A DNA stretch of 64,000 nt from Berkelbacteria bacterium GW2011_GWE1_39_12 (GCA_001029735.1 CP011213.1:140087-204086); one strand, 5' to 3'; shown: positions 18,241 through 50,112, numbered from the stretch's first letter. The notes: generated from the letters alone by a model not told the origin. Translations and numbers: made by a program.

Positions 18241-18332
18241 ATTTTCTGCTCCTACATTCGAATTTTTGAAACAATTTTATTTTTCCATAATTTCAGCGGA
18301 ATTTTCCGCGAATTAGAATTTTAATTTTAATT

Positions 18333-19076
18333 CTATTTTATCGTCCAGCCACCATCTACAGTTAATATTTGGCCTGTGATATAACTAGCTTCGTCGGACG
18401 CTAAAAATAAAACAGCATTAGCAATATCTTCCGGCTCGCCAATTCTTCCGAGTGGTATCATTGAAATTGTTTGCTTTTTAATTCCCTCGTCGGAACTTTG
18501 GCCGGCTCCAGGAGTATTAATTGCACCTGGGGCAATCGCATTTACATTGATTTTTTTTGGGGCCAATTCGACAGCCAAAGCTCGGACAAAGCCGTTCATT
18601 CCACCTTTAGAAGCACAATAATGTGCGAGCTGAGGAAATGCAACAAGAGAAGCAATTGAAGAGATATCAACAATTTTAGAACCTTCCTTCATGATTTTGG
18701 CCGCCGCTTGGGAAGAAAGAAAAACACTTTTTAAATTAACGCTTAAAACTTTATCCCAATCTTCTTCTGCCATTTCTAGAAATGGCTTGTAAGGAAAAAT
18801 ACCTGCATTATTAACCAATATATCCAAAGCTCCAAAATTCTCAACCGTCTTATCAATTAAATTGTCAACTTCCATTTTTTTTGAAACATCACATTTAATA
18901 GCAATTGATTTTTTGCCAGATTGTTTAATTTCATCGGCCACTTTTTGAGCGTTCGCTTCATCAATATCACTGACGACGACAAAACAACTTTCCTCTGCAA
19001 GCCGCAACGCAATTCCGCGACCAATCCCTTGACCAGCGCCAGTTACGATTGCCACTTTATTTTTGAGTCTATCCAT
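18333..19076 (-). CDS. SDR-family oxidoreductase (3-oxoacyl-ACP reductase FabG-like).
   Basis: TGAGQGIGRGIA (a TGxxxGxG Rossmann motif), NNAG, and a catalytic YxxxK (YCASK) are present. Confidence 0.85.
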   Translation of the reverse strand: MDRLKNKVAIVTGAGQGIGRGIALRLAEESCFVVVSDIDEANAQKVADEIKQSGKKSIAIKCDVSKKMEVDNLIDKTVENFGALDILVNNAGIFPYKPFLEMAEEDWDKVLSVNLKSVFLSSQAAAKIMKEGSKIVDISSIASLVAFPQLAHYCASKGGMNGFVRALAVELAPKKINVNAIAPGAINTPGAGQSSDEGIKKQTISMIPLGRIGEPEDIANAVLFLASDEASYITGQILTVDGGWTIK

Positions 19077-19090
19077 TTTATCTCCTTTAA

Positions 19091-19444
19091 CTATCCGAGC
19101 TTAACTATTTTTTCTATATCTGTGAGAATTGCGCCTTTGGCTGGAAGGCCTTTGTTTTCTGACATTTTCTTCACATAGTCTAGCCATTCACCATTATTAT
19201 AATAAGATGCTGCGCCGACGATTTTATACCCTTGCCAATCTTTGTTCCAAACCACTAAGCATACATTGTTATTTGCCTTAATGTTTTGTAAAGTTTCATT
19301 CATGTAATTATCGGTAATCAAAATCTGATTTTGTACAATCTTAACGAAAGCGACTGCAATTACATTTGGTTTATTTTCTTCAGTGACAGTCGATAAGGCA
19401 ACTGGATTATTTTCTAATATTTCTTTTATCTCATTTAGCGTCAT
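19091..19444 (-). CDS. Pyridoxamine 5'-phosphate oxidase-like FMN-binding protein, ~117 aa.
   Basis: PNPOx-like split-barrel pattern (NKPNVIAVAFVK...ILITDNYM...VCLVVW). The start is taken at the internal MTLNEIKE Met (19444), and the gene overlaps the hydrogenase stop by 14 nt. Confidence 0.65.
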   Translation of the reverse strand: MTLNEIKEILENNPVALSTVTEENKPNVIAVAFVKIVQNQILITDNYMNETLQNIKANNNVCLVVWNKDWQGYKIVGAASYYNNGEWLDYVKKMSENKGLPAKGAILTDIEKIVKLG

Positions 19445-20855
19445 TTGATATTTCACATTCTCTTGTTGGCGTTTTATCATAATCAACATGTAGATACTTT
19501 TTAGCTATTTCTCCGCCAGGGCATTTGAATAAATTATCGTAAACTTCTTTAATAATTGGATTCTCATGCGCTTTACGAATTATTTTACCAGCATCAATTT
19601 TATATAAGGCTTCTCGTCTTTTGTTAATAGTTTCTTTAGTCGCAGGTTTAGGTTGTCCTCCACCTCCAACGCAGCCGCCAGGACACGCCATCACTTCAAT
19701 ATAATGGTAAACTTCGCCATTTTCTATCTCTTCGATTATTTTTTCAGCGTTTTTTAAACCGGCCGTGACGGCAATCTTAATTTGTTTACCATCTATATTC
19801 AGGGTCGCCTTTTTAATGCCTTCCATGCCACGAAATTCTTCATATTCGATCTTGTCCAAGTCCTGATTATATAATGACGCTAAAGTTCTGACGGCCGATT
19901 CCATTACACCACCAGAAGCACCATAAATCGCTCCGGCGCCGGAGGCTTCACCCAATGGAGCATCAAATTTTTCGGACTCTAAATTAGGCAAATCAATATT
20001 AGCCGCCTTTACCATTTTGATAAATTCCCGAGTGGTCAAAACGAAATCAACATCCCATTGACCCGACGCATCCTCACCACTTCTTCGACTTTCGAATTTT
20101 TTCGCAATACAAGGCATAATGGAAACAACTACAATATTTTTCGGATCAAGATTTAGTTTTTGCGCAAAATAAGTTTTAGTCACAACAGCTAAACATTCTT
20201 GAGGTGATCGCACTGTTGTTAAACTCTCCATTAATTCTGGGTGGAAATCTTCAATAAACTTAACGCGCGAAGGACAGCACGACGTAAACATCGGCGTTTT
20301 GTTATTTTCTATTCTTTCTTTGAGATCATATGCCTCTTCGTAGGTGGTAAAATCTGCACCTAGATTAACGTCGAAAACATATTTAAAACCAAGTTTTTTT
20401 AGAGCAGAAATCATTTGACCTTCAAGAATTTCATCCGGTTCCTTACCGAAGGAATCACCCAAAGAAACACGTAGAGACGGCGCAATTTGCGCAATCACAA
20501 TTTTACTTTCGTCAGAAATAGCTGATTTGACTGGCTCAATATCTTCTTTTTCCGCCAAGCAACCAGTTGGACAAGCTAGGATACATTGACCACAGCGAGT
20601 ACATTTAGAATCTTTAAAATCCATCTTGCCATCAGGCCTAAAATATAAGCACCCTTCAACTTCCGTTTGCACCGGAATTCCTAGGCCGTTATTTTCTAAA
20701 CAAGCCGTTCTACAGATTCCACAACCAATACATTTTTCTTCATCGCGAGTAATCGCCAAATCACTCATATCTTTATAAGGTTTACCTTTTTTATTCTCTA
20801 CAATTGATTGATGTGGATTTACGGTAAAATTTTTACCGTTGATTTCTATTTCCAT
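19431..20855 (-). CDS. hydA: [FeFe]-hydrogenase catalytic subunit with N-terminal ferredoxin-like 4Fe-4S domains.
   Basis: Two 4Fe-4S motifs are present (CIGCGICRTAC and CTRCGQCILACP). The H-cluster signatures are L1 TSCCPSRV, L2 MPCIAKKFE and L3 EVMACPGGCVGGGGQP. Confidence 0.9.
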   Translation of the reverse strand: MEIEINGKNFTVNPHQSIVENKKGKPYKDMSDLAITRDEEKCIGCGICRTACLENNGLGIPVQTEVEGCLYFRPDGKMDFKDSKCTRCGQCILACPTGCLAEKEDIEPVKSAISDESKIVIAQIAPSLRVSLGDSFGKEPDEILEGQMISALKKLGFKYVFDVNLGADFTTYEEAYDLKERIENNKTPMFTSCCPSRVKFIEDFHPELMESLTTVRSPQECLAVVTKTYFAQKLNLDPKNIVVVSIMPCIAKKFESRRSGEDASGQWDVDFVLTTREFIKMVKAANIDLPNLESEKFDAPLGEASGAGAIYGASGGVMESAVRTLASLYNQDLDKIEYEEFRGMEGIKKATLNIDGKQIKIAVTAGLKNAEKIIEEIENGEVYHYIEVMACPGGCVGGGGQPKPATKETINKRREALYKIDAGKIIRKAHENPIIKEVYDNLFKCPGGEIAKKYLHVDYDKTPTRECEISNDAK

Positions 20856-20880
20856 TAAAACCTTTCATGAGTCTTTTTGT

Positions 20881-21078
20881 TTAATCTTTGGTTGAAAGTC
20901 GGTAGAACCATATCGCTGCAGCTGCCATTAAAATAAGTCCAATGATAACGATTATGGAAAATTTTGAGCTGAACGGATTTAGCGTATCGGCAGATGCACT
21001 AATACTTTTGATCGACATTAAAACAACGCCAAACAAAGCTACCACAGAAGCAGAAATAAATTGGGTACTTTTTTTCAA
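20881..21078 (-). CDS. Small membrane protein, 65 aa.
   Basis: Two hydrophobic helices are predicted. Confidence 0.35.
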   Translation of the reverse strand: MKKSTQFISASVVALFGVVLMSIKSISASADTLNPFSSKFSIIVIIGLILMAAAAIWFYRLSTKD

Positions 21079-21114
21079 AACCTCTCCTTATTTTTCAAAA
21101 TTCAACAATATTAT

Positions 21115-21528
21115 TTATTTGTGAGAATCTAAAAACGATTTAAGCTTTTCGGCAGTTTGGAAGCCCTCCAAACGATCACCGTTTTTAGCAATAAAACTAG
21201 GTGTACCGGAAACATTAAACTCTTTCCACCAGCCTTGATTTTCCGGATGATTCGAACCGACATTCATTGCCTTAACGCGATACCCTTGATCACCGAGCTC
21301 TTTTAGAACAGCTTGTTCTTTAATACACCAACTGCAATTATCCTGATAAAACTCCATAACATTGGCGTTGTCATCGTAATATGGCTGATTATCAAGATCA
21401 ACGCTTCCGACTGTTTGTGGACCGGCTGCTGTTGGATTATTATTATTAGTTTTAAAACCCCAAATTCCCAACGCAGCAATAGTGACGATTACAACAATCA
21501 AGCCTAAAATCCAGCGATTATTTTTCAT
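21115..21528 (-). CDS. Membrane-anchored thioredoxin-fold protein with a CxxC motif (thiol:disulfide oxidoreductase-like).
   Basis: A transmembrane helix (WILGLIVVIVTIAALGIW) is followed by a thioredoxin fold with DNCSWCIKE. The start is taken at the internal Met to avoid a 40 nt overlap with gap. Confidence 0.65.
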   Translation of the reverse strand: MKNNRWILGLIVVIVTIAALGIWGFKTNNNNPTAAGPQTVGSVDLDNQPYYDDNANVMEFYQDNCSWCIKEQAVLKELGDQGYRVKAMNVGSNHPENQGWWKEFNVSGTPSFIAKNGDRLEGFQTAEKLKSFLDSHK

Positions 21529-21581
21529 ATTTCTCCTTGAAAATCCGCGCAAATCTATTTGCCATCTTTTATTACCTTTCT

Positions 21582-22598
21582 CTATTTTTCTTGAGTTATA
21601 AGTTTTTCTATGAAGCGACAAAACTCTGCTAGTCTGTAAGAATAGCCAAGCTCATTATCATACCAAGCCAACACTTTTACAAGGTTTCCGCCAACAACTT
21701 GTGTCGAAAGGAGATCAATGATCGAAGCATTAGGGTTCCCTCTGAAATCAACTGAAACTAGCGGCTCATTGCAAACAGATAGAGCGCCGGCAAATTTCGG
21801 GTCGTTGGCTGCATCAATAAATGCCTGATTTACTTTTTGTTCAGTAGTTTCTTTTTTTAAAACGGCAACAAAATCAACCAAAGAGACAGTCGATGTTGGC
21901 ACTCGGAATGAAACTCCTGCCATTTTGTCTTTAAGCTCTGGAATCACTTCGGCCGTTGCTTTTGTTGCACCAGTGGTGGTCGGAATAATCGATTGCGAAG
22001 CCGCACGAGCTCGACGCAAGTCTTTATGCGGACTGTCTTGCAAAACCTGATCCATTGTATATGAGTGAATGGTGCTCATCATAGCTTTTTCGATTCCAAA
22101 GTTATCATTCAAAACTTTAGCCATCGGTGTCAAAGCATTTGTTGTACAAGACGCCATCGAACAAACATCATCTTCTTCAAGATTGAATTTTTCTTCGTTA
22201 ACACCTAAAACAAATGTTTTTATTGGATCTTCACCTTTTGATGGTGCCGAAATAATAACATGTTTTGCTCCGGCCCGGATATGTTTTCTGGCCTTACTTT
22301 TTTCCGTAAAGGCACCTGTAGATTCGATAACCACATCAATATCTAAATCTCTCCAAGGTAATTTTTCCGGGTCTTCTTCGGATAGGAATTTAATCATTTT
22401 GCCATCGACGGTTATATAGCCGTCTTCAATATCAACTTGGCCGGGAAATTCACCGTAGGTTGAATCATATTTAAGTAAATGACCTAAAGTTGCGACATCA
22501 CCTAAATCATTTATTGCGACAATATCCAGCTTAGCATCGTAGGCAGCTCGAAAAAAAGTACGACCGATTCGTCCAAAGCCATTAATTGCAATTTTCAT
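21582..22598 (-). CDS. gap: Glyceraldehyde-3-phosphate dehydrogenase.
   Basis: MKIAINGFGRIGR NAD-binding motif and the ASCTTNAL active-site Cys motif; 338 aa. Confidence 0.95.
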   Translation of the reverse strand: MKIAINGFGRIGRTFFRAAYDAKLDIVAINDLGDVATLGHLLKYDSTYGEFPGQVDIEDGYITVDGKMIKFLSEEDPEKLPWRDLDIDVVIESTGAFTEKSKARKHIRAGAKHVIISAPSKGEDPIKTFVLGVNEEKFNLEEDDVCSMASCTTNALTPMAKVLNDNFGIEKAMMSTIHSYTMDQVLQDSPHKDLRRARAASQSIIPTTTGATKATAEVIPELKDKMAGVSFRVPTSTVSLVDFVAVLKKETTEQKVNQAFIDAANDPKFAGALSVCNEPLVSVDFRGNPNASIIDLLSTQVVGGNLVKVLAWYDNELGYSYRLAEFCRFIEKLITQEK

Positions 22599-22661
22599 GT
22601 CATCTCCTTTTATAAATTAGTATTTTAATACTTCCATAAAAACAATCCTTTCGCAAGTAAT

Positions 22662-24221
22662 TTAACCAATGTCCATATCGGAAACATCTTCATTTGTCCT
22701 TGGACGATTAAGCTGCATCTCCTTTATACTAAGATTGGCAGGCCCGTTATTTACTTCTACGACCGGTGGCACGGGCGTTTGATTGATTGGGACTTGTGGT
22801 GGCGGAGCGTTAACAGAAGCTTGCTCTGGTATTTGCACAATTGGTTTCGCTGGTAAATCAGAAGGGATCTCTGATATCGTTTCCGCGTTTGATTTAAAAG
22901 TAAAAACCCCTCGATAGCGGTAAATTAAAAAAGCTATCACTAATATACCCATGGTAATCATGCTCCAAAGCGATATCTGCTGCAAAAGGCTCTTTTTGGT
23001 TTCTGTAGTCGGAGTATCAAAAGTGGTAGTAGTGTCGCCTGTTGTATCAAGTTTATTACCCGTTATTGTCTGGTTTTTTGTCGTCGTCGGTATAGAACTA
23101 ACCGTTCCGGTTTTTGGAGTCTTTGTCGTGGTTGTAGCTTTACTAGGAGTTGTAGTATTGCCGGTTTTACTAGTAATTGAACCAGTCCCTGTGTCTTCAG
23201 TTGATCCTCCGCTAGTATCACCACTTCCCGTGTCTCCGTCGTTCGTATCACTGCCGTTCGTATCACCATCACTTGTGTCTCCGTCGTTCGTATCACTGCC
23301 GTTCGTATCACCATCACTTGTGTCTCCATCGTTCGTATCACTGTTGTTCGTATCACCATCACTAGTATCGCCACCCCCCGTGTCGCCTCCGCTAGTATCT
23401 CCGTCGTCTGTAGCTACAGGCGACAAACTTAAACTAGCCGTATTACTATTACCACAGGTATCAGTTATAGTTTTACTCCCGCTGTTATAGTCACCTTTTG
23501 TCATAGAAACGGCATAAGAACTGTTATTTGAAAGAAACGGCACAGTTATTTGATAGCGACCACTGTTATCGGTTGCAACAGAATAACCTCGAAGAGAAAC
23601 TGTAGCACCGGAAATTGCAGCGCCGGTTTTCTGATCAGTAACAGTGCCACTAAGACTAAAGGTAGCCTGAGTTGCTCTAATTCTGAAATCATGAATTGTC
23701 TGGTTAGCATTAAGGATAATTTGTGTTTGAACTGCTGTTTTCTGCGAGTTACATGCTGATTTGAAATCTGATTCACTGCCAAAAACCGGATTGGTGAATT
23801 TAATATCCGTCGGCGAGCTTGCGTATTGATATTTAAGAGAAGACACACTCCCAGCGGTCGGTTTTACAGAACCAATGGCCGAATTGTTGGCTCCATAGAG
23901 AACAGCCGTTGTAAGCACACCCGAACCGAACGCAGAAACTGATACATCATTGTTGTTGGGATTAAACGTCAAGCGTAACGTCGACTTGGCTGAATACCAA
24001 TCATTTAAAACACCCCAAGTAATTTGATGCGAGGCACTGCTAACTGGAGTAAATTTAGACTCTTCCCAAACTCCAGGTGTAAAGCTATCAGCTTTTATTT
24101 TATTTGTAGAAATTTGATAATAATAAGCACCGCCAGCAAGTCCAATAACAAGAAAGGCGATAACAACAAATAAGAGAGTCTTTTTTTTTATCAAGAAAAC
24201 CTCAAACTTTCTGCCGGCCAA
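22662..24221 (-). CDS. Cell-surface protein, 519 aa, with a carboxypeptidase-regulatory-like beta-sandwich domain, an acidic GDTxDGDTNxSDTND repeat region, a Thr/Pro-rich stalk and a C-terminal transmembrane anchor.
   Basis: An N-terminal signal anchor is present. SGTVTDQKTGAAISGATVSLRGYS resembles a CarboxypepD_reg domain. The Asp-rich repeats are encoded by the 45 bp tandem repeat. The C-terminal anchor is MITMGILVIAFLIY followed by a basic tail. Confidence 0.75.
   Translation of the reverse strand: MAGRKFEVFLIKKKTLLFVVIAFLVIGLAGGAYYYQISTNKIKADSFTPGVWEESKFTPVSSASHQITWGVLNDWYSAKSTLRLTFNPNNNDVSVSAFGSGVLTTAVLYGANNSAIGSVKPTAGSVSSLKYQYASSPTDIKFTNPVFGSESDFKSACNSQKTAVQTQIILNANQTIHDFRIRATQATFSLSGTVTDQKTGAAISGATVSLRGYSVATDNSGRYQITVPFLSNNSSYAVSMTKGDYNSGSKTITDTCGNSNTASLSLSPVATDDGDTSGGDTGGGDTSDGDTNNSDTNDGDTSDGDTNGSDTNDGDTSDGDTNGSDTNDGDTGSGDTSGGSTEDTGTGSITSKTGNTTTPSKATTTTKTPKTGTVSSIPTTTKNQTITGNKLDTTGDTTTTFDTPTTETKKSLLQQISLWSMITMGILVIAFLIYRYRGVFTFKSNAETISEIPSDLPAKPIVQIPEQASVNAPPPQVPINQTPVPPVVEVNNGPANLSIKEMQLNRPRTNEDVSDMDIG
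23232..23366. repeat. 45 bp tandem repeat, 3 copies, in-frame inside ORF 22662..24221.
   Basis: GTCTCCGTCGTTCGTATCACTGCCGTTCGTATCACCATCACTTGT is repeated with 1-3 substitutions. It encodes the (T)SDGDTNGSDTNDGD units. Confidence 0.8.
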
Positions 24222-25201: not shown

Positions 25202-25203
25202 AA

Positions 25204-28168: not shown

Positions 28169-29362
28169 CTATTGTTTCATAGATTTTCTATGAAGGGTTC
28201 GGTAGTACGAAATCGCGAAGCGATGAGCCTCATCTCTTAAGCGTAAAAGATACATTTTATCGAAATTTAAATTTTTCGCTCCAATTAATTCAGTACCTTT
28301 TCGATCTTTTCCTTTGGCAATACCAACGACAGGAATATTTATTTTGCGCTCTAATAAAACTTCTAAGAATGCATTAACTTGAGACCTGCCACCATCAACC
28401 AAAATTAATTCTGGCAAAGGCCACTCTTCGTGATTTAAGCGGCGATTTAAAACTTCTTTCAACATCGCTACGTCGTTGGCACCTCTGACCGATTTTATTT
28501 TAAATTTTCTGTATTGATTCTTATCGATTAAACCTTCGGAAAAAACCACCATCGAACCGACGGCAAATTCTCCGGAGATATTTGAAATATCATAGGCTTC
28601 AATTCTTTTCGGAGCAGGTTTTTCTTCTAAATTTTCAGCAGTAACCAAAGCCACATCTTGTATATGTTTAAGTGCGAATATTTGATCACGTTTTTTGGCT
28701 GCTCTTTCAAATTCCATTTTTTTGGCTGAAATTTTCATTTCTTTTTCTAAATCTGCAATAATTTGTTTTTTCTTGCCTTTTAAAAATAAACGGATTTTAT
28801 TGATCGTTTTTTGATATTCTTTTTGTTCAACTTTACCTACACAAACACCTGGGCAAAGTCCCATATGATATTCAAAACACGCTTTGCCAGAATTTGGTTC
28901 GCAGGAATATCTAAATGGAAAAATTTTACGAATAATTTGCAAGGCTTCACGGACATCAGTTGCCGACGGAAACGGGCCGTAAAATTCACCGTCCGGTAGT
29001 TTTTCAGTTATTCTTGCCGGCATTACGCGCGGCCAATCTTCTTTCGTGACAAAAATACCAAGGTAAGTTTTGTCATCTTTCAATTTGATATTATATTTTG
29101 GTTGATATTTTTTAATTAACTCGTTTTCCAAAAGCAAGGCTTCTATCACCGATTCCGTTTGGCGAGTTTCGATAACGGAAACTTGAGACAGCATTTTTTC
29201 AATTCGAGTTTCTTGCGGTCGTTGAAAATAGCTAATAACACGGCGTTTTAACGACGAGGCCTTACCGATATATAAAATAGTGCGATCTGCGCTTCGCATT
29301 AAATAGACGCCTGGTTCGTCTGGAAACTTTTTAATTTTTTCGATTAATTTAAGTGTATTCAT
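28169..29362 (-). CDS. uvrC: Excinuclease ABC subunit C, short form (397 aa), lacking the C-terminal HhH domain.
   Basis: The GIY-YIG N-terminus (GVYLMRS...LYIGKASSLKRRV), the UvrBC-interaction (UVR) motif and an RNase H-like EAYDISN endonuclease domain are present. The ORF stops before a helix-hairpin-helix domain. Confidence 0.85.
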   Translation of the reverse strand: MNTLKLIEKIKKFPDEPGVYLMRSADRTILYIGKASSLKRRVISYFQRPQETRIEKMLSQVSVIETRQTESVIEALLLENELIKKYQPKYNIKLKDDKTYLGIFVTKEDWPRVMPARITEKLPDGEFYGPFPSATDVREALQIIRKIFPFRYSCEPNSGKACFEYHMGLCPGVCVGKVEQKEYQKTINKIRLFLKGKKKQIIADLEKEMKISAKKMEFERAAKKRDQIFALKHIQDVALVTAENLEEKPAPKRIEAYDISNISGEFAVGSMVVFSEGLIDKNQYRKFKIKSVRGANDVAMLKEVLNRRLNHEEWPLPELILVDGGRSQVNAFLEVLLERKINIPVVGIAKGKDRKGTELIGAKNLNFDKMYLLRLRDEAHRFAISYYRTLHRKSMKQ

Positions 29363-29506
29363 ATTTCGTTAGAAATTCCGCGACAATCTCTGATTGGCCA
29401 TATTTTTCTTTAGAAAAATTCCGCGATAATTTTAATTATCTATTTTTAGGTTTAATTGTATCAGGAAATATCTTATGAATCAAACGTCAATTTAAAAATC
29501 CGCCGA

Positions 29507-33631: not shown

Positions 33632-33678
33632 ATCCGCTACATTGTATCAGAAAAATCTTCAAGAGTCCATCTGAACCA

Positions 33679-34574: not shown

Positions 34575-34781
34575 TTATATTTCCTCTTCGTTTTGTCCTT
34601 CGGACTGTTCGCCTTTCTTAACTAACTCTCGCACTTTTTGTCCGCCTTTATGGCCGATTTCTTGGTAGAAGTCATGGCCATGAGTTCTGGCAGTTGCCTC
34701 TCCGCCCTTTTGGCCGCCCATTTTACCAGCCTCGCGGACTGTCATTTCGCCGCGTCCTTTTGTATTTGGCATTTTACTCAC
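34575..34781 (-). CDS. KGG-repeat general stress protein (YciG-like), paralog 1.
   Basis: The pattern MTVxEAG(K/R)KGGQ...FYQEIGHKGGQKVRELVKKGE carries repeated (H)KGGQ motifs typical of the KGG stress-protein family. Confidence 0.7.
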   Translation of the reverse strand: MSKMPNTKGRGEMTVREAGKMGGQKGGEATARTHGHDFYQEIGHKGGQKVRELVKKGEQSEGQNEEEI

Positions 34782-34796
34782 CCCCTTTATAAAATA

Positions 34797-34988
34797 TTAT
34801 TCTTCCTCTTCTTCAGAGCTTCCGTCTCCTGTTGTGCCTTCTTTGGTCCCCTCTTCGCCATCTCCTTCTTCTTGGGCCTCTTCTTCCTCTCCCTTTTTAA
34901 CCAATTCCTTAACTTTTTGCCCGCCTTTGTGGCCGGCCTCTTCGACCGTCATTTCTCCACGTTCCTCATCAGTATTTTGATTACTCAT
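34797..34988 (-). CDS. KGG-repeat stress protein, paralog 2, with an acidic Glu-rich tail.
   Basis: MTVEEAGHKGGQKVKELVKKGEEEE is followed by an E/G-rich tail. Confidence 0.65.
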   Translation of the reverse strand: MSNQNTDEERGEMTVEEAGHKGGQKVKELVKKGEEEEAQEEGDGEEGTKEGTTGDGSSEEEEE

Positions 34989-34998
34989 TATGCCTCCG

Positions 34999-35196
34999 TT
35001 ATTCTTCCATACTTTCTTTGCCTTTTCGAACTAGTTCTCGTGCTTTCTGACCACCCTTTTTACCGCCAATTTCCCCGCCTTTATGACCGATTTCTTGGTA
35101 AAATTCATGACTGTGAGTCTTGGCGGTAGTCTGACCACCCTTATGCCCGGCTTCCTGAACAGTCATGTCACCTTTATTTGTTTGATTTTTATTCAC
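34999..35196 (-). CDS. KGG-repeat stress protein, paralog 3.
   Basis: MTVQEAGHKGGQTTAKTHSHEFYQEIGHKGGEIGGKKGGQKARELVRKGKE. Confidence 0.7.
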   Translation of the reverse strand: MNKNQTNKGDMTVQEAGHKGGQTTAKTHSHEFYQEIGHKGGEIGGKKGGQKARELVRKGKESMEE

Positions 35197-35225
35197 AATT
35201 AATCACCTCACTAAAAATGGGTATG

Positions 35226-35258
35226 GAATGAGGGGAGGGATTAGCCATCCCCTCATTC
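35226..35258 (-). terminator. Intrinsic terminator between KGG paralogs 4 and 3.
   Basis: The 11 bp stem GAATGAGGGGA/TCCCCTCATTC has a T-run downstream on the minus strand. Confidence 0.45.
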
Positions 35259-35269
35259 TAACTTCGAGT

Positions 35270-35473
35270 TTACATTCCGCGACGATTTGAACGGGACGTA
35301 CCTTCTCCACCTGCCTCTTCACCTTTTCGAATTAGTTCTCTTACTTTTTGCCCACCTTTATGTCCGATTTCTTGGTAGAATTCTCGTCCGTGAGTTCGAG
35401 AAGTTGTTTCCCCGCCTTTACGACCTGCTTCCTGCACAGTCATGTTACCTTGATTTTGTTGCGATCGATTCAT
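35270..35473 (-). CDS. KGG-repeat stress protein, paralog 4.
   Basis: MTVQEAGRKGGETTSRTHGREFYQEIGHKGGQKVRELIRKGEE. Confidence 0.7.
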   Translation of the reverse strand: MNRSQQNQGNMTVQEAGRKGGETTSRTHGREFYQEIGHKGGQKVRELIRKGEEAGGEGTSRSNRRGM

Positions 35474-37564: not shown

Positions 37565-37616
37565 TGCGAGGATATACTAACACAAAAATGCGATTAAATC
37601 CATTGTTAAGCGTTTC

Positions 37617-39132: not shown

Positions 39133-39134
39133 AA

Positions 39135-40747: not shown

Positions 40748-40790
40748 ATTCCTCCCTTATCTTTTATTACTTATTACTATAAAGAGAAGG

Positions 40791-41255: not shown

Positions 41256-41272
41256 ATCTTCTCCTCTAATTT

Positions 41273-42236: not shown

Positions 42237-43031
42237 CTAGCTAAGCCTCTTGATCTGTGTGTAAATGTGCAAACTTAACTTTTTGAATTTTTCCCAGCTG
42301 AAGTTCGGATCAAATTCCTGAAACATCTTATCGCCATACTTTGAAATCACTTCACAGGTGCCCACGCTTCCATAGTCGAACATCCTTAGTTTTCCGTCTT
42401 CCAGACTGAAATTGGCAGGGTTAGCGAAAGCGTGTCCATCGGGAAAACATCCCATGTTGGTTATCTCTTGAAGATTACACCAAACATCGACTAACTCCAG
42501 AGTACATTCTTTCCCCGCTTTCTGAATGTTCAACAGCCCGAAAAACGAAAAGTATGTTGGCTGCAAAAAAGGATTCCGAGTTTTTACGTAAAACACAAAC
42601 TCGAGCCAATTCGCGTGAATCCCACCAAGGAGAAAATGAGGAATTGTTCCCCACATTTCTGGATGACAAAAAGTAAATTGCCAGATCCGTCGCCACCTTC
42701 TATGTTTAAAGACCAACCAAAACATAGTTCTGATTGCATTCCAGATATAGAATCGCGGTAACTTGACGGCGATTCTAATAGAAGGCAATACTACAACAAT
42801 TCTGGTGTATCCTTTGCAGATTTTCACAGTGATCTCCTCCCCCCTCAACCGATAATAACTTACAATTAAGCCTTTGACAAATAAATCTTTTTCTGATATA
42901 ATAATTTTGTTACTGAATAAAAAGGAAAAGCAAAAAAATAGCCAAGCATAGCTTGTCACGGAATTTTTCTCACTTATAATAATTAGATGGAAAAAATATG
43001 AAAAAAGATATTCACCCACAATACAATTCAA
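42237..43031 (-). CDS. Hypothetical Trp/Phe/Cys-rich protein, 264 aa, with an N-terminal hydrophobic region.
   Basis: This long ORF fills an otherwise empty 900 bp between rpsB and rpmE. The [11 protein letters not shown] and MFDYGSVG segments faintly resemble the catalytic and Mg-binding loops of protein-kinase-like folds. The real start is uncertain, and the ORF overlaps the rpmE start. Confidence 0.4.
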
Positions 43032-43234
43032 ATGTTCCAGTTAAATGCTCCTGCGGCAACACTTTCGAAACCGGCTCAACCGCCGACAAGATTGAAGTCG
43101 AAGTTTGTTCAGCGTGCCATCCGTTCTACACCGGCACTGCCAAGTTCATCGACACCGCTGGCCGCGTCGACAAATTCCGTGCTAAGATGAAAACCGCGGA
43201 AGATTTAAAAGCAAAATCAAAAAAGTCTAAGTAG
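42998..43234 (+). CDS. rpmE: 50S ribosomal protein L31.
   Basis: MKKDIHPQY... with the CxxC...CxxC Zn-ribbon (CSCGN and CSACHP). Confidence 0.9.
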
Positions 43235-43245
43235 ATACTAAAAAA

Positions 43246-43286
43246 GACGGCTTTCGAGTATACTGTTACTAGAAGCCGTTTTTTAG
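43246..43286 (+). terminator. Intrinsic terminator after rpmE.
   Basis: The stem ACGGCTT/AAGCCGT is followed by TTTTTT. Confidence 0.5.
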
Positions 43287-43307
43287 TAAAAAATAAAGGG
43301 AAATAAG

Positions 43308-45226: not shown

Positions 45227-48200
45227 TTTATCTTGACCTTATATGTAGCTGTGAAAACTTTGCCAATATCTAAACTATTCACATTCCAGATGATTTCATT
45301 ATTAATTAGGCTCCCGCTATTAGACGCTGAGTTGGCCACGTAGGTTGTCAAATTTGGTATTAAAGCGTTAACCTTAATATTCTTTATTGCCGTCCCAACA
45401 CTGTTAACAAAGTTAACGGTATATGTAATTATCCCGCCTGAGCTCGATTCAGCTTTGTCTGCCATTATGGTCACGGAACCGCCGCCTAGTTGCTTAATGT
45501 AGTTAAACATAGTTTTCCTAATATTGTCGAAAACTGCGTAATCAGTCGGATTCCCAGTCGACGAAACAGATTTGATTATCTCGTTTCCAAAACCATAATC
45601 GTTTTTTTTGTTTACGTAATCTTTTGTCCAATCCGACTTTACATTGGACAAAATATTTTCTAAAAATTGTTTAGCTTTAATAGCTGTCTGATCGTTTGGA
45701 TTAATTTTCAACCTTTCATCGATCAGCCGCTGTAGCGTCGCATAATATTTTCCATCTTTCGCCCCTTCTCTCATTGCTTCCAATGAAACCGAAGAATTTA
45801 TATTTCCATCCCATGTAGGATAGGCTAAAACATAATCGTAGGCTGTCCTCGGGAAAGCACGGTCACTGCAAATATCAAAATCATTAAATGAATCTCCGCC
45901 GGCATTATCGTAATAAACCCAGTTATAAATAATTTTTGTGTCCATCTTTTCAGCATAAAGTCCGCTCATAAAGCGGTTGTAAACAGGATCCCTTAACTGA
46001 GAATAATATGTTGTATAATAACCTTCAGAACCTTGAAGATATCCTGAATTATCAATTGCGCCTGTATGCCAAACCGGATAAATCCTATAGTCAATTAGCG
46101 GAGCGAGGGCAGGAATTTTACCAGTATATGATCCGCACAAATCTATCTCATTGCAATCTAATTCTATGTTTGCATTGGAACTATACGTTATAAATGTCTT
46201 TACTCCTTTTGCCTTTATAATTCGATCAATACGATCTTCTTGAATTCTCTTGGTTAAATCAACTCCTGGCTCGTCACTCGTTTCTAATATTAAAGTAACA
46301 TTTGTTTTGTTTTGTATATTAAAATTGTCCATAGACTGTTTTAATTCCAAAACGAGTTCTCCCATGGCATTAACAAACAATGGGTCTGAAAGTTGATCGT
46401 AAAGTGCAGAACTTTTTGTAAAATTTACATCTCTCTTTTGCAGCTGTTTGATTATCGTTGTCGCTGCTCCTCCGAGACCCTGATACATTGCCAGCTTTTG
46501 ATTAGCTCCTTTTTCAAAAGAAGAGTTGAGAGTGTTATTGAAGGATTCGGTATTAAATTTAAAAGGATTTGCGCTACTTCCATCACCAGTCATAGGGGTT
46601 ATTGTACTTACATTTCCTATCACAGTATCCATATCATGACTCACCATGTTTTGAATTGCTAAATCCTGATATTTAGAAGTTAATGCAGTGGGATTTGAAT
46701 AAGGATTTCTAGATATAGCATTGAAATGATTGGCGCTATCTAAAACTACCGGTAAGACATCAATTGTTATTGGTATCGTATCAACTTTTAATCCGCTTAT
46801 CATTATGTCAATGTTACCAGAATACATCCCGCCTGGTTGATTCTTCGGTAAATCAACTAAAAGATAAAATTGCTGTGTATGATGTAAAGAATCACTATTT
46901 AAATCCATTTTATCAAAATTTTCTAAACGATCAGGAAGAAGACCATAAGTATTTCCCGCAATACTGCCAACCCATTGTCTTTCTTCATAAACAACTTTTT
47001 TGATACTTAAATTAGCAGGTAAAATTGTATTGCCGCTAGAAGAAAATGACCCTATGTTAAACTGAAGATTTTTGAGATTATTTTTAGCGTAAATCGAAAA
47101 ATTGATTGGTTCCACTTCGCCGATTACAGAAAAAGCATTTATTGGTTTCTTTATCGTATCCTGTGCAGACGGCTTACTATAAGGTAGAACTAGCTCTATA
47201 GACGGGCTATTAAACCAGGTCAAATTACCGGCAACAGCTGGGGCGGGATTATTGTCCGGCAAATAGGCAGCCCTCATCACTCTTGTTCTTTTTTGAAATT
47301 CAATAAAAGCAGTTGAATCAGCCTGAACCAATTTATTTATTGAAATATAATCAATGACGAAAGCCGGATCGGCATCGCCGTCTTTCAAAGTAAGAGTTGG
47401 CATAGTGATTTTAAATTGATAATAACCATCAATTGGCTTTAGTGCTTTGGGGTTATCTTTGCTATTTAAAAATAATGTTTGACCTGTCAGCCAAGCCTGG
47501 TTGCCATATAGCCCCGTGTTATCAAAACCATATGAACCCGAAAAATAACTGCCCGTACTGGAATCGAACCAGGGACTCTTGTTTTGAATTGTCACCCCTT
47601 TTAGAACATTATGAGTAATGTAATCGCTATAGTGAAAAACATCTTTGTATCTTATCTCTACAATCATATCGGAATCATTGGCATTAAAATCTTTCGGCGC
47701 TGGAATTTTAATTTCAACAGTTTTTTTAGCTAGGACTTCTCGATAAGCAACATTTTCAGAATCAGTAATTACACCAGAAAAATTTTCTGCATCCATGGCT
47801 TTATTACCTTGGTTGTCGCTCAACACAGAAGAATTGGAGTTTAGACCAGAAAACTTAATACACCTAGAATCAATCGTATTTTGACAACCAAATTGTTTTG
47901 AGTTGAAACCTATTAAGGAAAAATCATCCCAATAAGTTGTACCCCTATTAATGCCAAAAAAAAGAATTTTGATTTTTACAGTATCTGCAGAATGTATTCT
48001 ATTGACTCCTTTATATTGTTTCCAATCTGTCGTAACAATCTGTCCTCCTGAAATTATTGATGTCCATGACCCAACAGAATTATTGTTACTATCAAGTTCT
48101 TGCCAACCAAAATATATCTTTTCTGTTCCGTTTCCTCCTTTTATAAAAACTGACATCTCATAGTAATCATTTTTATTTACAGGTAATTCCTGATTGGAAA

Positions 48201-48390
48201 AAGTTGCATGGGTTGACGAAAGGCTACCCGGAGAGCCATCGATCTTAGGTGCCGGATTGGATACGAATTTTAATGAAGCTGCTCCCGAATGATGTTGACT
48301 TTTATCAACAGTAACTGTCTTGTCTTTTTGAGGATTCAAATTCCAGCCAGTAAGCCCTGATTCAAACCCTGGATTAGTTAGTAAGTTCAA
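45223..48390 (-). CDS. Large secreted 1055 aa protein with an N-terminal CBM4_9-like module, a large central domain of unknown function and a C-terminal DUF11 domain.
   Basis: A signal anchor is present (RFIFVTVFLLLIIVIPFF). The CBM-like segment is NPGFESGLTGWN...HSGAASLKF. The C-terminal DUF11-like segment is GGIITYTVNFVNSVG...ATYKVKIN. Confidence 0.8.
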   Translation of the reverse strand: MNLLTNPGFESGLTGWNLNPQKDKTVTVDKSQHHSGAASLKFVSNPAPKIDGSPGSLSSTHATFSNQELPVNKNDYYEMSVFIKGGNGTEKIYFGWQELDSNNNSVGSWTSIISGGQIVTTDWKQYKGVNRIHSADTVKIKILFFGINRGTTYWDDFSLIGFNSKQFGCQNTIDSRCIKFSGLNSNSSVLSDNQGNKAMDAENFSGVITDSENVAYREVLAKKTVEIKIPAPKDFNANDSDMIVEIRYKDVFHYSDYITHNVLKGVTIQNKSPWFDSSTGSYFSGSYGFDNTGLYGNQAWLTGQTLFLNSKDNPKALKPIDGYYQFKITMPTLTLKDGDADPAFVIDYISINKLVQADSTAFIEFQKRTRVMRAAYLPDNNPAPAVAGNLTWFNSPSIELVLPYSKPSAQDTIKKPINAFSVIGEVEPINFSIYAKNNLKNLQFNIGSFSSSGNTILPANLSIKKVVYEERQWVGSIAGNTYGLLPDRLENFDKMDLNSDSLHHTQQFYLLVDLPKNQPGGMYSGNIDIMISGLKVDTIPITIDVLPVVLDSANHFNAISRNPYSNPTALTSKYQDLAIQNMVSHDMDTVIGNVSTITPMTGDGSSANPFKFNTESFNNTLNSSFEKGANQKLAMYQGLGGAATTIIKQLQKRDVNFTKSSALYDQLSDPLFVNAMGELVLELKQSMDNFNIQNKTNVTLILETSDEPGVDLTKRIQEDRIDRIIKAKGVKTFITYSSNANIELDCNEIDLCGSYTGKIPALAPLIDYRIYPVWHTGAIDNSGYLQGSEGYYTTYYSQLRDPVYNRFMSGLYAEKMDTKIIYNWVYYDNAGGDSFNDFDICSDRAFPRTAYDYVLAYPTWDGNINSSVSLEAMREGAKDGKYYATLQRLIDERLKINPNDQTAIKAKQFLENILSNVKSDWTKDYVNKKNDYGFGNEIIKSVSSTGNPTDYAVFDNIRKTMFNYIKQLGGGSVTIMADKAESSSGGIITYTVNFVNSVGTAIKNIKVNALIPNLTTYVANSASNSGSLINNEIIWNVNSLDIGKVFTATYKVKIN

Positions 48391-48567
48391 TGATTCATGC
48401 GCCGAAACTGATTGTGGTCCTTCGAAGTAGTCTGGGAAAAAAGGAATAACAATTATTAAGAGTAAAAAAACTGTAACAAAAATAAACCGAAAATGGCGGC
48501 GATTATAAATTGATGGTTTGCAGCTTAATTTCCCAAACTGTCTGATCTTCCCTCCTGAAGGCTTCCG

Positions 48568-49743
48568 CTACAAAGTTGATCCGAGTTTTACACTAACCTT
48601 ATTTTCTTTGCCTGCTCGAATAAATGTTAATTCTATAGTATCGCCCGGTTGAAAAGTTTGAATTTTGGAACTTAAGGGATTGTTTTGGTCAACGCGACCA
48701 CCATTAATTTCCGTAATCACGTCGCCATTTTTAAGACCAGCGTTTTCAGCACTGCTGCCCGAAGAAATTCCACCGCTTATCAGTGCACCGTGATCAACAG
48801 AAAGATTCTTCGAAGATGCTATTTCAGGCGTGACCATTACGTAGCTCACACCAAGCTGTGGACGGATAATTTTACCGTTTTTTTGGAATGAAATAATCGC
48901 AGTCTTAACCGTATTAACTGGAATAGCAAACCCAATACTTTGAGCATTGCTAGCCATGGCTGTATTTATACCAATAACCTGGCCGGCTAAATTAACTAAA
49001 GGACCACCAGAGTTTCCGGAATTAATAGCTGCGTCTGTTTGCAATAGATTTTCCAACTGCTCGCTTTGGCCGTTTGTCCCACCTGCAGTCAAGGCACGCT
49101 CCCTCGCTGAAATAACGCCAACCGTTACAGTATTCTGTAGTTGCCCTAAGGCATTGCCAATGGCAATCACCCACTGACCAATTTGTAATTTGTCGGAATC
49201 GCCTAAATCGACGACGGGCAAACCCTTGGCATCGATTTTCATAATAGATAAATCATTCGATGGGTCCTGCGCTACCACTTTACCATCGTATTTTTTTCCG
49301 TCGGCCGTAAAAACACTGTAGGTCGCACTAGTGTCGGACCCGACATGTTTATTTGTTAAAATATAACCGTCATTTGTAAAAACAAAGCCTGTTCCTGCCG
49401 ATTGTGACTGAGTAACTTGGCCAAAAAAATCTACCACATCTCTAGTGGAAGTAATAGAAACGACTGCCGGTGATACTTTTTTTGATGAATCGATGACAGC
49501 CGATGATTCCTCGAGAACTAACTTTTCTGTAGTAGTTTTGTTAATATTCAGCGTTTGCAAATCTATGCCTAATTTACTTTTTAAGGTTGGACTATAAGAG
49601 AGTAAAAATAAAGCCCCAGCTCCTCCGATCACTCCCATTACAAGCCCGATAATTAGCACTAAAACCACTAAACGATTGTTGCTATTTTTCCCTCTGTATC
49701 GGTGAGTTGTTTCATTGTCATCGAGATAAGTAATTTTTGGCAT
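48568..49743 (-). CDS. htrA: HtrA/DegP-family serine protease (trypsin-like domain plus PDZ).
   Basis: An N-terminal transmembrane anchor is followed by the catalytic triad context (TNKHV, D, GNSGGPLVN) and a C-terminal PDZ domain. Confidence 0.9.
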   Translation of the reverse strand: MPKITYLDDNETTHRYRGKNSNNRLVVLVLIIGLVMGVIGGAGALFLLSYSPTLKSKLGIDLQTLNINKTTTEKLVLEESSAVIDSSKKVSPAVVSITSTRDVVDFFGQVTQSQSAGTGFVFTNDGYILTNKHVGSDTSATYSVFTADGKKYDGKVVAQDPSNDLSIMKIDAKGLPVVDLGDSDKLQIGQWVIAIGNALGQLQNTVTVGVISARERALTAGGTNGQSEQLENLLQTDAAINSGNSGGPLVNLAGQVIGINTAMASNAQSIGFAIPVNTVKTAIISFQKNGKIIRPQLGVSYVMVTPEIASSKNLSVDHGALISGGISSGSSAENAGLKNGDVITEINGGRVDQNNPLSSKIQTFQPGDTIELTFIRAGKENKVSVKLGSTL

Positions 49744-49822
49744 AAATCTCCTTTATTCCGTCTATATAATTGTATCAATATTTAACGTATTAAAAAATGC
49801 TGAAAATAAGCTGAAATAGCGC

Positions 49823-50077
49823 TCAGTTTTTCTTTTCTTCTTTTTCTGTTTCCTCTTGAGTCGCTTTTCCCAGAAAGTAGGTCACGATAACAGCAACAAC
49901 AGTGACAACAAGCGCATAATATATTTTACTACGAACACCGTTGCCTGGCTCAATAAATTTATCAATCAAGGCCTGAATTGCAGTGTTCCATGCAAGGGCT
50001 GCCACAAACCCAAAAGCTGCCGTAGCCAACTGTGTCATAGTTTTTAAAAACTCACTGCGGAGGGTTGGTTTAGCCAT
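49823..50077 (-). CDS. Small protein, 84 aa, with a C-terminal transmembrane helix.
   Basis: It is an intact ORF, and the recurrent CGCGGAATTTT element lies ~20 nt upstream. Confidence 0.5.
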   Translation of the reverse strand: MAKPTLRSEFLKTMTQLATAAFGFVAALAWNTAIQALIDKFIEPGNGVRSKIYYALVVTVVAVIVTYFLGKATQEETEKEEKKN

Positions 50078-50112
50078 TTATATTTTCTTTCAAGGAAAAT
50101 TCCGCGGCAAGT

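Follow-up and report, generated by a model that had tools for sequence, protein, structure and literature searches.

The window, a 64,000-nucleotide stretch of the genome of Berkelbacteria bacterium GW2011_GWE1_39_12 analysed as a whole, carries the GC-rich 10-mer AAATTCCGCG at positions 29373-29382, 29416-29425 and 50097-50106, which reads as CGCGGAATTT on the minus strand in all three cases. Two of these exact copies lie at uvrC and one at an 84 aa DUF5654 gene; the preliminary description had named the same sites, at coordinates a few bases off, together with a copy at pgk, which proves to match only with one mismatch. As that description expected, such a sequence should be rare here: three copies of CGCGGAATTT are observed in the window versus 0.27 expected, and at least three are reached in 0 of 100 shuffles. 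Furthermore, intergenic DNA is enriched in the hexamer CGCGGA, TCGCGGAA is among the top intergenic-enriched 8-mers alongside the −10 box and the Shine-Dalgarno (SD) sequence, and a perfect hairpin of at least 5 bp follows at offset 0-1 after 6 of 9 intergenic CGCGGA sites, versus 4-9% background.

This 10-mer forms the invariant core of a two-hairpin repeat unit of about 45-50 nt (range 43-66), read on the mRNA strand. Specifically, the unit is composed of AU(A/G)G, hairpin P1, CGCGGA, hairpin P2 and AU(G/A), in that order. P1 has 4-8 bp, free in sequence and preserved in pairing, while P2 is A/U-rich, with the 5′ arm AAUUUUC(C) and the 3′ arm (G)GAAAAU; loops span 3-23 nt, and stem lengths also vary. 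Among 71 units, the 5′ boundary is AUAG in 41 and AUGG in 17. The element first described is real but incomplete; the upstream hairpin P1 of each copy had escaped notice.

Covariation supports both hairpins, with 91.9-93.2% of cells paired versus 73-75% in shuffles (reached in 0 of 500), although hexamer invariance and part of the P2 pairing are built in, because the seed set was gathered by CGCGGA-based patterns and hairpin filters. Sliding the pairing partner leaves at most 60% paired, double changes occur at all 6 P1 pairs and at 3-4 P2 pairs, and RNAalifold, run independently, predicts the same two hairpins. The hairpins are weak: the predicted ΔG is -1.6 to -6.5 kcal/mol, and most window copies are no stabler than shuffled sequence (z -1.3 to +0.7). 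Rfam release 15, applied at the gathering threshold to the window and 15 unit-bearing loci, returned rRNA and tRNA matches only, and at E up to 10 it added only noise matches far under threshold; the literature search gave no match.

The covariance model, R1, identifies six units in the window, one upstream of pgk, two at uvrC, and one each at the DUF5654 gene, a thioredoxin-like gene and the L31 gene. Three further units lie in the next 9 kb, and the density is about 1 per 9 kb (73 kb of the 915-kb genome read). R1 recovers the pgk, uvrC and DUF5654 sites already listed, while the thioredoxin-like and L31 units had been overlooked. The weaker variants reported at ~57770 and ~27300 are non-members, with no covariance-model match at either; the ~57770 site is without unit anatomy and lies upstream of a terminator-like hairpin. 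Likewise, GCGGAATTTTCC (53048..53059, plus strand), inside gatA, is not a unit and has no full-length R1 match, and its coding strand gives the conserved amidase motif S-T-E-N-S-A-F (translation read from sequence).

The DUF5654 unit (50076..50124, minus strand; R1 61.4 bits, E=1e-13) fills the gatB-to-DUF5654 gap and comprises AUGG, P1 GCAAG-UAAA-CUUGC with the gatB stop UAA in its loop, CGCGGA (50106-50101), P2 AUUUUC...GAAAAU, AUAA and AUG. Its similarity to the uvrC-distal copy, pointed out earlier as near identity, holds and runs through ATGGC. The unit of the thioredoxin-like gene (21523..21565, minus strand; 40 bits, E=4e-8) comprises AUGG, P1 CAAA-UAGA-UUUG, CGCGGA (21549-21544), UUUUC-AAGGA-GAAAU, with the SD AAGGAG inside the loop, and AUG. 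The rpmE (L31) unit (42938..43003, plus strand; 48 bits, E=4e-10) comprises AUAG, P1 CCAAGC-AUA-GCUUGU, CACGGA (42957-42962), P2 with a 23-nt loop, and AUG; as both gene and unit are on the plus strand, orientation tracks the gene, not the replication strand. The pgk-upstream unit (18283..18336, minus strand; 22.2 bits, E=0.002) is divergent and lies between the stop of an SDR gene, which is the UAG of AUAG, and pgk. Its P1 is AAUUA...UAAUU, and after CGCGGA (18310-18305) AAAUUCCGC is predicted to fold into an alternative GC hairpin GCGGA-AAAU-UCCGC, followed by AUG-GAA-AAA-UAA; the SD and AUG of pgk itself come 46 nt later. The dyad originally noted there is present, as GCGGAATTTTCCGC at 18296-18309 with the hexamer inside it, and the core is the one-mismatch copy CGCGGAAAAT.

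In the uvrC leader, the two copies are 43 nt apart, and the tandem duplication suggested previously is supported. The distal unit (29396..29443, minus strand; 54.9 bits, E=5e-12) comprises AUAG, P1 AUAAU-UAAA-AUUAU, CGCGGA (29425-29420), P2 AUUUUUC-UAAA-GAAAAAU and AUGG. The proximal unit (29357..29402, minus strand; 24.3 bits, E=6e-4) comprises AUGG, a degenerate P1 CAAUC-AGA-GAUUG, CGCGGA (29382-29377), P2 AUUUC-UAAC-GAAAU and the uvrC AUG (29362-29360), and has no SD sequence. The 10-codon upstream ORF (uORF) MANQRLSRNF is present as described (29369..29401, minus strand), and starts where the distal unit ends in AUGG; it stops in the proximal P2 loop, 6 nt rather than 8 before the uvrC AUG. 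A sigma-70-type extended −10 promoter (TTGATT-17-TACAAT with TG) is predicted at 29455..29483 on the minus strand, placing the predicted transcription start a few nucleotides upstream of the AUAG of the distal unit, and the terminator of the gene upstream of uvrC lies at 29519-29499.

A typical unit spans the gap from the stop codon of one gene to the AUG of the next. The upstream stop codon is provided either by the 5′ AUAG, as its UAG, or by a UAA within the loop of P1, and 17 of 26 nearby upstream ORFs end in AUAG or P1. In gene-start units, the SD is carried in the P2 loop and the AUG directly follows the last P2 pair. ATG occupies the fixed terminal position in 35 of 71 distinct units, 29 of these 35 being real gene starts; 9 more units have a gene start 3-13 nt away, and the tested starts agree with public gene calls in 9 of 9 cases. 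The SD core is in the P2 loop in 24 of the 35 ATG units versus 7 of the 36 others. About one third of units lie away from start codons, some in 3′ UTRs or ahead of promoters. Consistent with the orientation-dependent control element proposed at the outset, the units are co-oriented with genes and tied to start codons.

The unit occurs in one Berkelbacteria subgroup within the candidate phyla radiation (CPR) and lies before many unrelated genes (L3, L4, L6, L11, L16, L25, L27, S8, S17, IF2, LepA, GAPDH, MurG and others). A metagenome scan yielded about 70 distinct units, from Berkelbacteria-like contigs; the pattern, in which only CGCGGA and the P2 arms were forced, gave about 35 CPR-like loci, where P1 and the AURG flanks are present though not forced. 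In one 78-85% relative, three orthologous junctions have retained units, with compensatory changes. Specifically, the DUF5654-junction unit at locus L232 is identical at 45 of 53 positions, and its outer P1 pair carries a compensatory change; the thioredoxin-like-junction unit at locus L140 has the atypical GGAUUUU in common and a compensatory P1 change; and 3-4 units occupy the orthologous L31 site at L232. No units were found in other relatives or in 1.24 Mb of other CPR DNA. In relatives without the unit, uvrC is leaderless or gatB and DUF5654 overlap at the same junctions. Absence from orthologous upstream regions, named beforehand as evidence against the element, is seen at uvrC and pgk but not at the DUF5654, thioredoxin-like and L31 junctions, there in one relative lineage. 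The units are dispensable, because close relatives, including an 89% DUF5654 relative, are without them. The family enlarges by tandem duplication (2 units at uvrC, 5 in the L140 gap leader, 3-4 in the L232 L31 leader) and is gained and lost at junctions. Separately, a related core occurs within a longer element, copies of which flank restriction-modification cassettes as perfect inverted pairs.

Three of the explanations offered initially fit these data poorly. An operator or half-site of a transcription factor, with pgk, uvrC and DUF5654 as regulon, could account for a conserved GC-rich hexamer in AT-rich upstream regions and for the perfect dyad GCGGAA-N2-TTCCGC of the pgk copy, but is very unlikely. 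The conserved feature is two covarying hairpins, whose arms and loops vary in length, so that there is no fixed dimer geometry or spacing; the arms covary rather than conserve sequence, the downstream genes have no common function, and units lie within operons, begin at upstream stop codons and strictly take the orientation of the gene. Alignment of the units on the hexamer shows no conserved box at a fixed distance, such as the 16-17 nt expected between a GGAAC-like −35 and a CGT-type −10, the downstream segment varying by indels, and no −10 is conserved at fixed spacing from GGAAT (13-18 nt or more), which argues against an alternative (ECF-type) sigma promoter with GGAAT as its −35 box. Its similarity to ECF −35 boxes, a TAAAAT/TATAAT box that precedes CGCGGA by 7 nt in the copies at pgk and the cvpA-like gene, and the TTGYCG often formed by the P1 3′ arm plus CG 15-18 nt ahead of GAAAAT would suit such a promoter. 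However, the ATG abuts the element 20-30 nt past the hexamer, so that the transcription start would lie within the ORF; upstream ORFs end inside the unit, canonical sigma-70 promoters precede the units of both uvrC and L31, and P1 3′ arms without TTG are common and compensated in the 5′ arm, making this reading, too, highly improbable. We judge leader-peptide control of uvrC and other genes extremely improbable: mini-ORFs do occur at pgk (3 codons), the cvpA-like gene (AUG-UAG) and several AUGG-type boundaries besides uvrC, but uORFs are found in a minority of units, neither their length nor their peptide is conserved, and no terminator/antiterminator alternative and no terminator after the uORFs were found. 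Most boundaries are AUAG, and the uORF is a by-product of an AUGG unit boundary.

A selfish, REP- or MITE-like miniature repeat, whose hairpins would serve single-stranded DNA mobilisation rather than expression, is unlikely but has appreciable weight. Its spread might be tolerated because the unit brings stop, SD and start signals, and this reading partly overlaps with that of a cassette acting in translation. It would explain the patchy presence at orthologous junctions among 72-89% relatives, the local tandem amplification, the orphan copies distant from start codons, the inverted pairs formed with the related core, and G-U/A-C counts that show no clear RNA-strand bias (14 vs 13; 12 vs 5 for inner pairs). 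Against it, P1 sequences vary within one genome with pairing kept, which argues against recent copy-paste, and strict co-orientation with genes, an ATG at a constant position and an SD placed in the loop indicate selection on expression. Furthermore, orthologous copies are retained with compensatory changes, and neither terminal inverted repeats, a clear target-site duplication nor a nearby transposase was seen.

Building on the demonstrated anatomy, covariation, strand and position rules and distribution, we favour, with belief and doubt in about equal parts, a unit that is a transcribed, post-transcriptional, structured translation-initiation/intercistronic cassette that is gained and lost in the manner of a repeat. 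What we infer is that the unit works as RNA, that it affects translation and that a trans factor exists; the unit probably acts on mRNA to set translation initiation. Counting against this reading are the low stability of the hairpins, the third of units away from start codons and the dispensability of the units. The translational half of the earlier suggestion of a translational or leader-peptide control module is the closest candidate to the data, and the leader-peptide half is not. P2 would enclose SD and spacer in a weak hairpin, the opening of which would set initiation. A lineage-specific trans-acting factor, whether protein or RNA, could contact the single-stranded invariant GCGGA(AUUUU), or this segment could be a standby site; the search found no such factor, and the 16S rRNA is without a complement to the hexamer. 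P1 would shield the cassette against translation arriving from upstream and may also protect the 5′ end. A bolder version, which we consider improbable, holds that this is a self-contained stop/hairpin-gated SD/AUG cassette that can be gained without polar damage, all copies being under one factor that recognises single-stranded CGCGGAAUUUU. If this were true, the leaderless uvrC and the overlapping gatB/DUF5654 pair would apparently have been converted to hairpin-gated initiation, about 10% of genes, those for ribosomal proteins and IF2 among them, would come under joint control, and a minimal-genome CPR bacterium would possess a natural 'toehold-like' global translational regulon.

Several known systems resemble the unit in part. 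Like the RAYT-associated REP/BIME elements of enterobacteria and pseudomonads, the unit is short (REP ~25-40 nt), high-copy, extragenic and co-transcribed, with a conserved single-stranded head beside an imperfect palindrome with kept pairing, clusters, and lineage-specific gain and loss. However, the head of REPs is GTAG and their stems are GC-rich, whereas the unit has CGCGGA and two hairpins; most REPs also lie at 3′ ends, with no preferred orientation and frequently in inverted pairs, and they carry no SD or start codon, whereas the orientation of the unit is tied to the gene. Neisseria Correia elements and pneumococcal BOX/RUP are likewise dispersed, intergenic and transcribed, can alter neighbour expression and occupy strain-variable sites (PMC3049150). 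They are 100-150 bp long with terminal inverted repeats and TA duplications, whereas the unit is ~45 nt without terminal inverted repeats and, unlike them, has a position fixed to the nucleotide with respect to stop and start codons. Among MITE hallmarks, terminal inverted repeats are absent, and apart from a loose resemblance, TGAAAGAA...ATGG, filled versus empty gatB/DUF5654 sites show no clean duplication. The TAACTGA direct repeats of Beggiatoaceae and cyanobacteria are likewise a lineage-restricted, abundant, short intergenic motif with tandem copies (PMC4679880) but are unstructured heptamers, whereas the unit is a two-hairpin module including the start codon. As in FourU/ROSE thermometers and anti-SD platforms, pairing of a U-rich strand (AAUUUUCC) with the GGA-AAAA that makes up SD and spacer just before the AUG gives weak, meltable stems; the FourU-type feature is present in that the P2 arms pair, with the SD core in the loop or 3′ arm in 24 of 35 ATG units. 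Thermometers, however, control few heat-shock or virulence genes and have no conserved flanking hexamer or second hairpin, and the location of the unit at general housekeeping genes argues against FourU membership. CsrA/RsmA sites have at least two A(N)GGA motifs, one in a loop over the SD, and the unit has GGA in CGCGGA and again in many P2 loops, but its hexamer is far more specific than ANGGA. Ribosome-binding-site (RBS) hairpins are opened by protein or RNA at the chloroplast PPR10-atpH intercistronic site, in DsrA-rpoS, in synthetic toehold switches and in bicistronic designs. By analogy of architecture only, the unit resembles these systems in having a single-stranded segment 5′ of an RBS hairpin, in its intercistronic position, and in upstream translation that ends at the cassette.

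The 10-mer AAATTCCGCG, singled out as recurrent in the preliminary description, occurs exactly three times in the window (29373-29382, 29416-29425 and 50097-50106; 0.27 expected), with all three copies reading CGCGGAATTT on the - strand, and none of 100 shuffles reaches three copies. The copy described upstream of pgk is present within the dyad GCGGAATTTTCCGC, but as a variant with one mismatch. TCGCGGAA belongs, like the SD and the -10 box (GATACAAT), to the 8-mers with the strongest intergenic enrichment. In the sequence read for units (the window and a 9-kb extension at its right end), the hexamer CGCGGA has 27 sites; a perfect A/T hairpin follows at offset 0-1 at 6 of 9 intergenic sites versus a background of 4-9% (P ~4e-7 to 4e-5), while the only coding-region site with such a hairpin lies inside the L31 gene and was initially scored intergenic. 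A pattern drawn from the window copies gives four matches in the window and none in other CPR loci (1.28 Mb), and an 18-base pattern gives 15 chance-type coding matches in viral contigs, which serve as a noise estimate. At 53048-53059 (+), in gatA, GCGGAATTTTCC raises the motif k-mer counts yet is a coding coincidence, because the opposite strand there encodes STENSAF, a conserved amidase motif; this 12-mer was rejected as an antisense partner on the same ground.

A metagenome scan with CGCGGAATTTTC-N3-8-GAAAATAT returned >115 stretches, about half of which belong to a separate family, class I. The other ~35, from AT-rich CPR-like contigs, have in common a unit that runs AU(A/G)G, hairpin P1, CGCGGA, hairpin P2, AU(G/A) on the mRNA strand and frequently forms tandem arrays with a period of 43-46 nt. 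Every window copy matches this anatomy, including P1 hairpins unnoticed earlier. The feature is real, and broader and more structured than the preliminary description saw; we rate it as a dispersed structured repeat or a cis-regulatory RNA motif.

We built an alignment (A1) and a covariance model (R1) from 52 units. Paired cells make up 91.9% of A1 and 93.2% of the 77-row model alignment A2, versus 73-75% in column shuffles, of which 0 of 500 equal the observed pairing, although part of the P2 pairing, like the invariance of the hexamer, is built in because CGCGGA-based patterns and hairpin filters chose the seeds; P1 was not imposed by the database scan. Sliding the partners by 1-3 columns lowers the pairing to 60% or less. 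Two-sided changes are found at all six P1 pairs and at three to four P2 pairs, and RNAalifold independently gives both hairpins, together with an extra pair, also invariant, that joins the G of AURG to the C of CGCGGA. Rfam 15 holds no family for the unit at gathering thresholds (window and 15 unit-bearing loci) and, for two unit-rich stretches, gives no family match even with the limit relaxed to E = 10, and a full-text literature search on the unit sequence and on CPR intergenic repeats returned nothing relevant. Pairing of CGCGGAAUUU with 16S rRNA was ruled out, as the window's 16S rRNA contains no complement.

An R1 search of the window identifies six units, located upstream of the DUF5654 gene (50076-50124, -; 61 bits), at uvrC (distal, 29396-29443, -; 55 bits; proximal, 29357-29391, -; 24 bits), at L31 (42938-43003, +; 48 bits), at the thioredoxin-like gene (21523-21565, -; 40 bits) and upstream of pgk (18283-18336, -; 22 bits). 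The L31 unit and the gene that it precedes are both on the + strand, and therefore orientation tracks the gene rather than the replication strand; this case removes a confound, because nearly all other window genes are on the - strand. The two uvrC copies, described earlier as a tandem block, are two adjacent units, which take up exactly the stretch from an extended -10 promoter (29483-29455) to the ATG. The upstream ORF MANQRLSRNF proposed there is real (29401-29369), but its gap to the uvrC ATG is 6 nt, not 8. Neither of the weak variants claimed as members near 57770 and 27300 is a unit in the R1 search. The extension adds three units: one at folD (56 bits), followed by the true folD start, MILYGK; one that precedes a cvpA-like gene; and a weak one, antisense to the genes beside it.

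Of the 71 distinct units, 35 have ATG as their end, at a fixed model position; in 29 of them this ATG begins an ORF that is at least 50 codons long or is truncated by the contig end. In nine further units a gene starts 3-13 nt downstream. In 9 of 9 cases tested, the unit ATG is exactly the start in public gene calls. The P2 loop contains a four-base SD core in 24 of the 35 ATG-ending units versus 7 of the 36 others. Where a long upstream ORF ends close to the unit (26 units), its stop is the UAG of AUAG in 11 and lies inside P1, mostly as UAA in the loop, in 6; the sequence read here has this arrangement at the SDR-to-pgk, gatB-to-DUF5654 and cvpA-like-to-folD junctions. Many units therefore fill the exact interval between a stop codon and the start codon that follows it. 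The downstream genes are unrelated to one another and include those for ribosomal proteins (L3, L4, L6, L11, L16, L25, L27, L31, S8 and S17), IF2, LepA, RNase H, GAPDH, MurG, PBP, XerC/D-like recombinases and response regulators, among others. About one third of units are orphans or upstream array members, some of the orphans lying in 3' UTRs and some ahead of sigma-70 promoters.

The public contigs of the window species, which include contig DODL01000008.1 of the Candidatus Berkelbacteria MAG GCA_003509005.1 and same-strain groundwater metagenomes such as the Rifle-type ANAN16 scaffolds, are 99.9-100% identical to one another, so strain-level polymorphism is not informative. A relative represented by two contigs of one JGI sample (L140 and L232) is syntenic with the window, and the genes that the two share are 63-88% identical in amino-acid sequence (uvrC 78%, GAPDH 82%, DUF5654 85%). 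This relative keeps units at orthologous positions in three places (the gap-to-thioredoxin-like and gatB-to-DUF5654 junctions and the region upstream of L31) and lacks them at uvrC, so that the presence upstream of orthologues on which the preliminary description had staked the element holds in part. P1 differs in a compensatory manner between orthologous units (GCAAG/CUUGC versus ACAAG/CUUGU; CAAA/UUUG versus CAAG/CUUG; CCAAGC/GCUUGU versus UUAAAC/GUUUAA), and P2 changes in a matched manner from U4/A4 to U5/A5; the DUF5654 unit is identical at 45 of 53 positions. At gap and prfA, this relative has units that the window lacks. In its gap leader (L140, reverse strand, 5815-6045), three short P1-less units ((A)AGCGGAATTTTTTGCAAAAATAT) precede two full ones; such an array of five shows that units are amplified locally.

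No unit occurs in the ~120 kb from other Berkelbacteria, which are at 68-89% identity; their uvrC is leaderless or short-leadered, their gatB overlaps DUF5654, and the uvrC upstream regions of relatives at 68-82% identity contain no motif and are not alignable with the window. The 1.24 Mb from 79 other CPR species give one marginal R1 match (E = 0.08). MurG of one unit-bearing contig has a Berkelbacteria protein as its closest named match (50%), and the taxon labels on unit-bearing contigs are otherwise only 'Patescibacteria group'. Presence, absence and compensation in relatives thus limit the unit family to part of the Berkelbacteria clade, with structural constraint where it is kept and turnover between junctions. 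The uvrC of the L140/L232 relative is leaderless (TGTTACAAT, 8 nt, ATG). An extended -10 (TGnTAnAAT) lies only 8-9 nt before the ATG of window uvrA (33632-33660) and uvrB (37565-37595) and of uvrC in relatives (L007, L088, L097, L098 and L140), and these mRNAs are therefore probably leaderless, judging by promoter spacing. The window uvrC leader of ~85 nt is a gain consisting of two units.

The window has a GC content of ~38% and most of its genes on the - strand. The genes uvrB, uvrA and uvrC adjoin a glycolytic cluster (TIM, FBA, PfkB, GAPDH, the thioredoxin-like gene, Fe-hydrogenase, SDR and PGK), and gatCAB-DUF5654-htrA lies farther along. Between uvrB and uvrA are four small tandem genes (34575-35473, -; 55-67 aa), three of which have faint Pfam matches to KGG-repeat (stress-protein-like) sequences; a CGCGGAA at 35281 is C-terminal coding sequence of the first. 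ORF 22662-24221 (-) contains a coding tandem repeat of 45-nt period (23239-23360; CGTTCGTATCAC... at 23240, 23285 and 23330, with 15-nt sub-repeats) and probably encodes the 'RD-repeat'-type protein of the preliminary description. The rRNA operon appears unlinked: the 16S rRNA gene is solitary (10141-11595, -), no 23S was seen in the window, and tRNA-Ala (2567-2641, -) and tRNA-Ile (3467-3543, +) lie on opposite strands, 6.6-7.6 kb away. In the 16S leader (-), GUUCCGCG (11915-11925) and, ~95 nt downstream, CGCGGAAAC (11813-11821) are complementary, could form a long-range helix and bracket a boxA-like UGUUCUUGAUUUGA; with no R1 match, they are not repeat units. Contig L099, at 12180-14106 (9 kb past the window's right end), carries clustered genes for a KaiC-like ATPase, a KaiB-like protein and a PucR-type regulator (GGDEF_2 and HTH_30), a clock-like module unexpected for a CPR genome.

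Class I has the CGCGGA-plus-P2 core in common with the Berkelbacteria unit, but was ruled out as the same family, as only model positions 20-42 match, and P1 and the ATG are absent. Its GGGGTCGCGGAATTTTCCAGCAGGAAAATATCCGTGACC core sits in a conserved stretch of ~100-170 nt at ~40 loci among L117-L231 (for example L119 56-161 and 3497-3602, L132, L164 and L142 5849-5946), on contigs with a GC of 0.34-0.59, often between or just downstream of tRNA genes. Inverted pairs, 100% identical, bracket restriction-modification cassettes; in L164 they flank a fusion of LexA DNA-binding, Peptidase_S24 and N6/N4 DNA methylase domains (991-2514) and an adjoining TaqI-like restriction endonuclease (2506-3201). 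Class I has no Rfam match and may be a mobile-element end, an att site or an ncRNA.

Co-orientation with genes, the SD and AUG inside the unit, the upstream stops and the compensated hairpins point to action in the transcript. We consider the chances about even that the unit is an RNA-level translation-initiation/intercistronic cassette; the anatomy is the best-supported part of this account, and the function we infer. In P2, AAUUUUC(C) pairs with the (G)GAAAAU spacer, placing the purine-rich SD partly in the loop and the AUG at the stem foot, as in hairpins that gate the SD. Between P1 and P2, the single-stranded GCGGA is strictly conserved, for which the best explanation is a recognition site for a putative trans-acting factor, conceivably an RNA-binding protein or a small RNA containing GGAAAAUUCCGCG, or a standby segment. 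P1 and stops in two frames would insulate the cassette from upstream translation. Against the cassette stand hairpins that are thermodynamically weak and no better than shuffles, the many units away from starts, and the close relatives without units. A G-U versus A-C strand test on the units gives 14 versus 13, and 12 versus 5 for inner pairs.

A selfish REP/MITE-like repeat accounts for the patchiness, tandem growth and orphan units, but leaves unexplained why P1 is so diverse in a single genome, why units are placed to the nucleotide against stop and start codons, and why the SD is enriched; we judge it unlikely as the explanation, though one to be taken seriously, and the unit may be both cassette and selfish repeat. 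The mechanisms offered in the preliminary description fare worse. Variable geometry and positions within operons make a half-site DNA operator highly improbable, and an ECF-type promoter is equally hard to credit, since the units lie within operons, have no -10 at a fixed place and leave no space for a start site; by eye, the aligned copies have no consistent boxes or spacing for sigma-54, sigma-32, ECF or leaderless-promoter readings. Leader-peptide control is the least probable of all, as the upstream ORFs are sporadic by-products of AUGG boundaries and the majority boundary is AUAG.

CPR/Patescibacteria have tiny genomes and few regulators and are nearly all uncultivated, and to our knowledge next to nothing is known of how they control gene expression. 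If the unit is an RNA-like module, as its covariation supports, one that brackets the stop and start codons of roughly a tenth of the genes, core translation genes included, would open a new approach to translation initiation and to how operons are organised in CPR, with CGCGGAAUUUU plus the hairpins as a concrete sequence for pull-downs, reporters and metatranscriptome mining. As a selfish repeat, it would be unusual in carrying translation signals, and would matter for small-repeat survival in streamlined genomes and for gene-start annotation in these MAGs. The closest known kinds include REP/BIME and transcribed MITE-like repeats, FourU-type SD-sequestering hairpins and the Beggiatoaceae intergenic TAACTGA repeats (PMC4679880); the likeness to protein- or RNA-opened RBS hairpins is one of architecture only. 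Among these, the Berkelbacteria unit alone combines two covarying hairpins, an invariant linker and a fixed stop/start framing.
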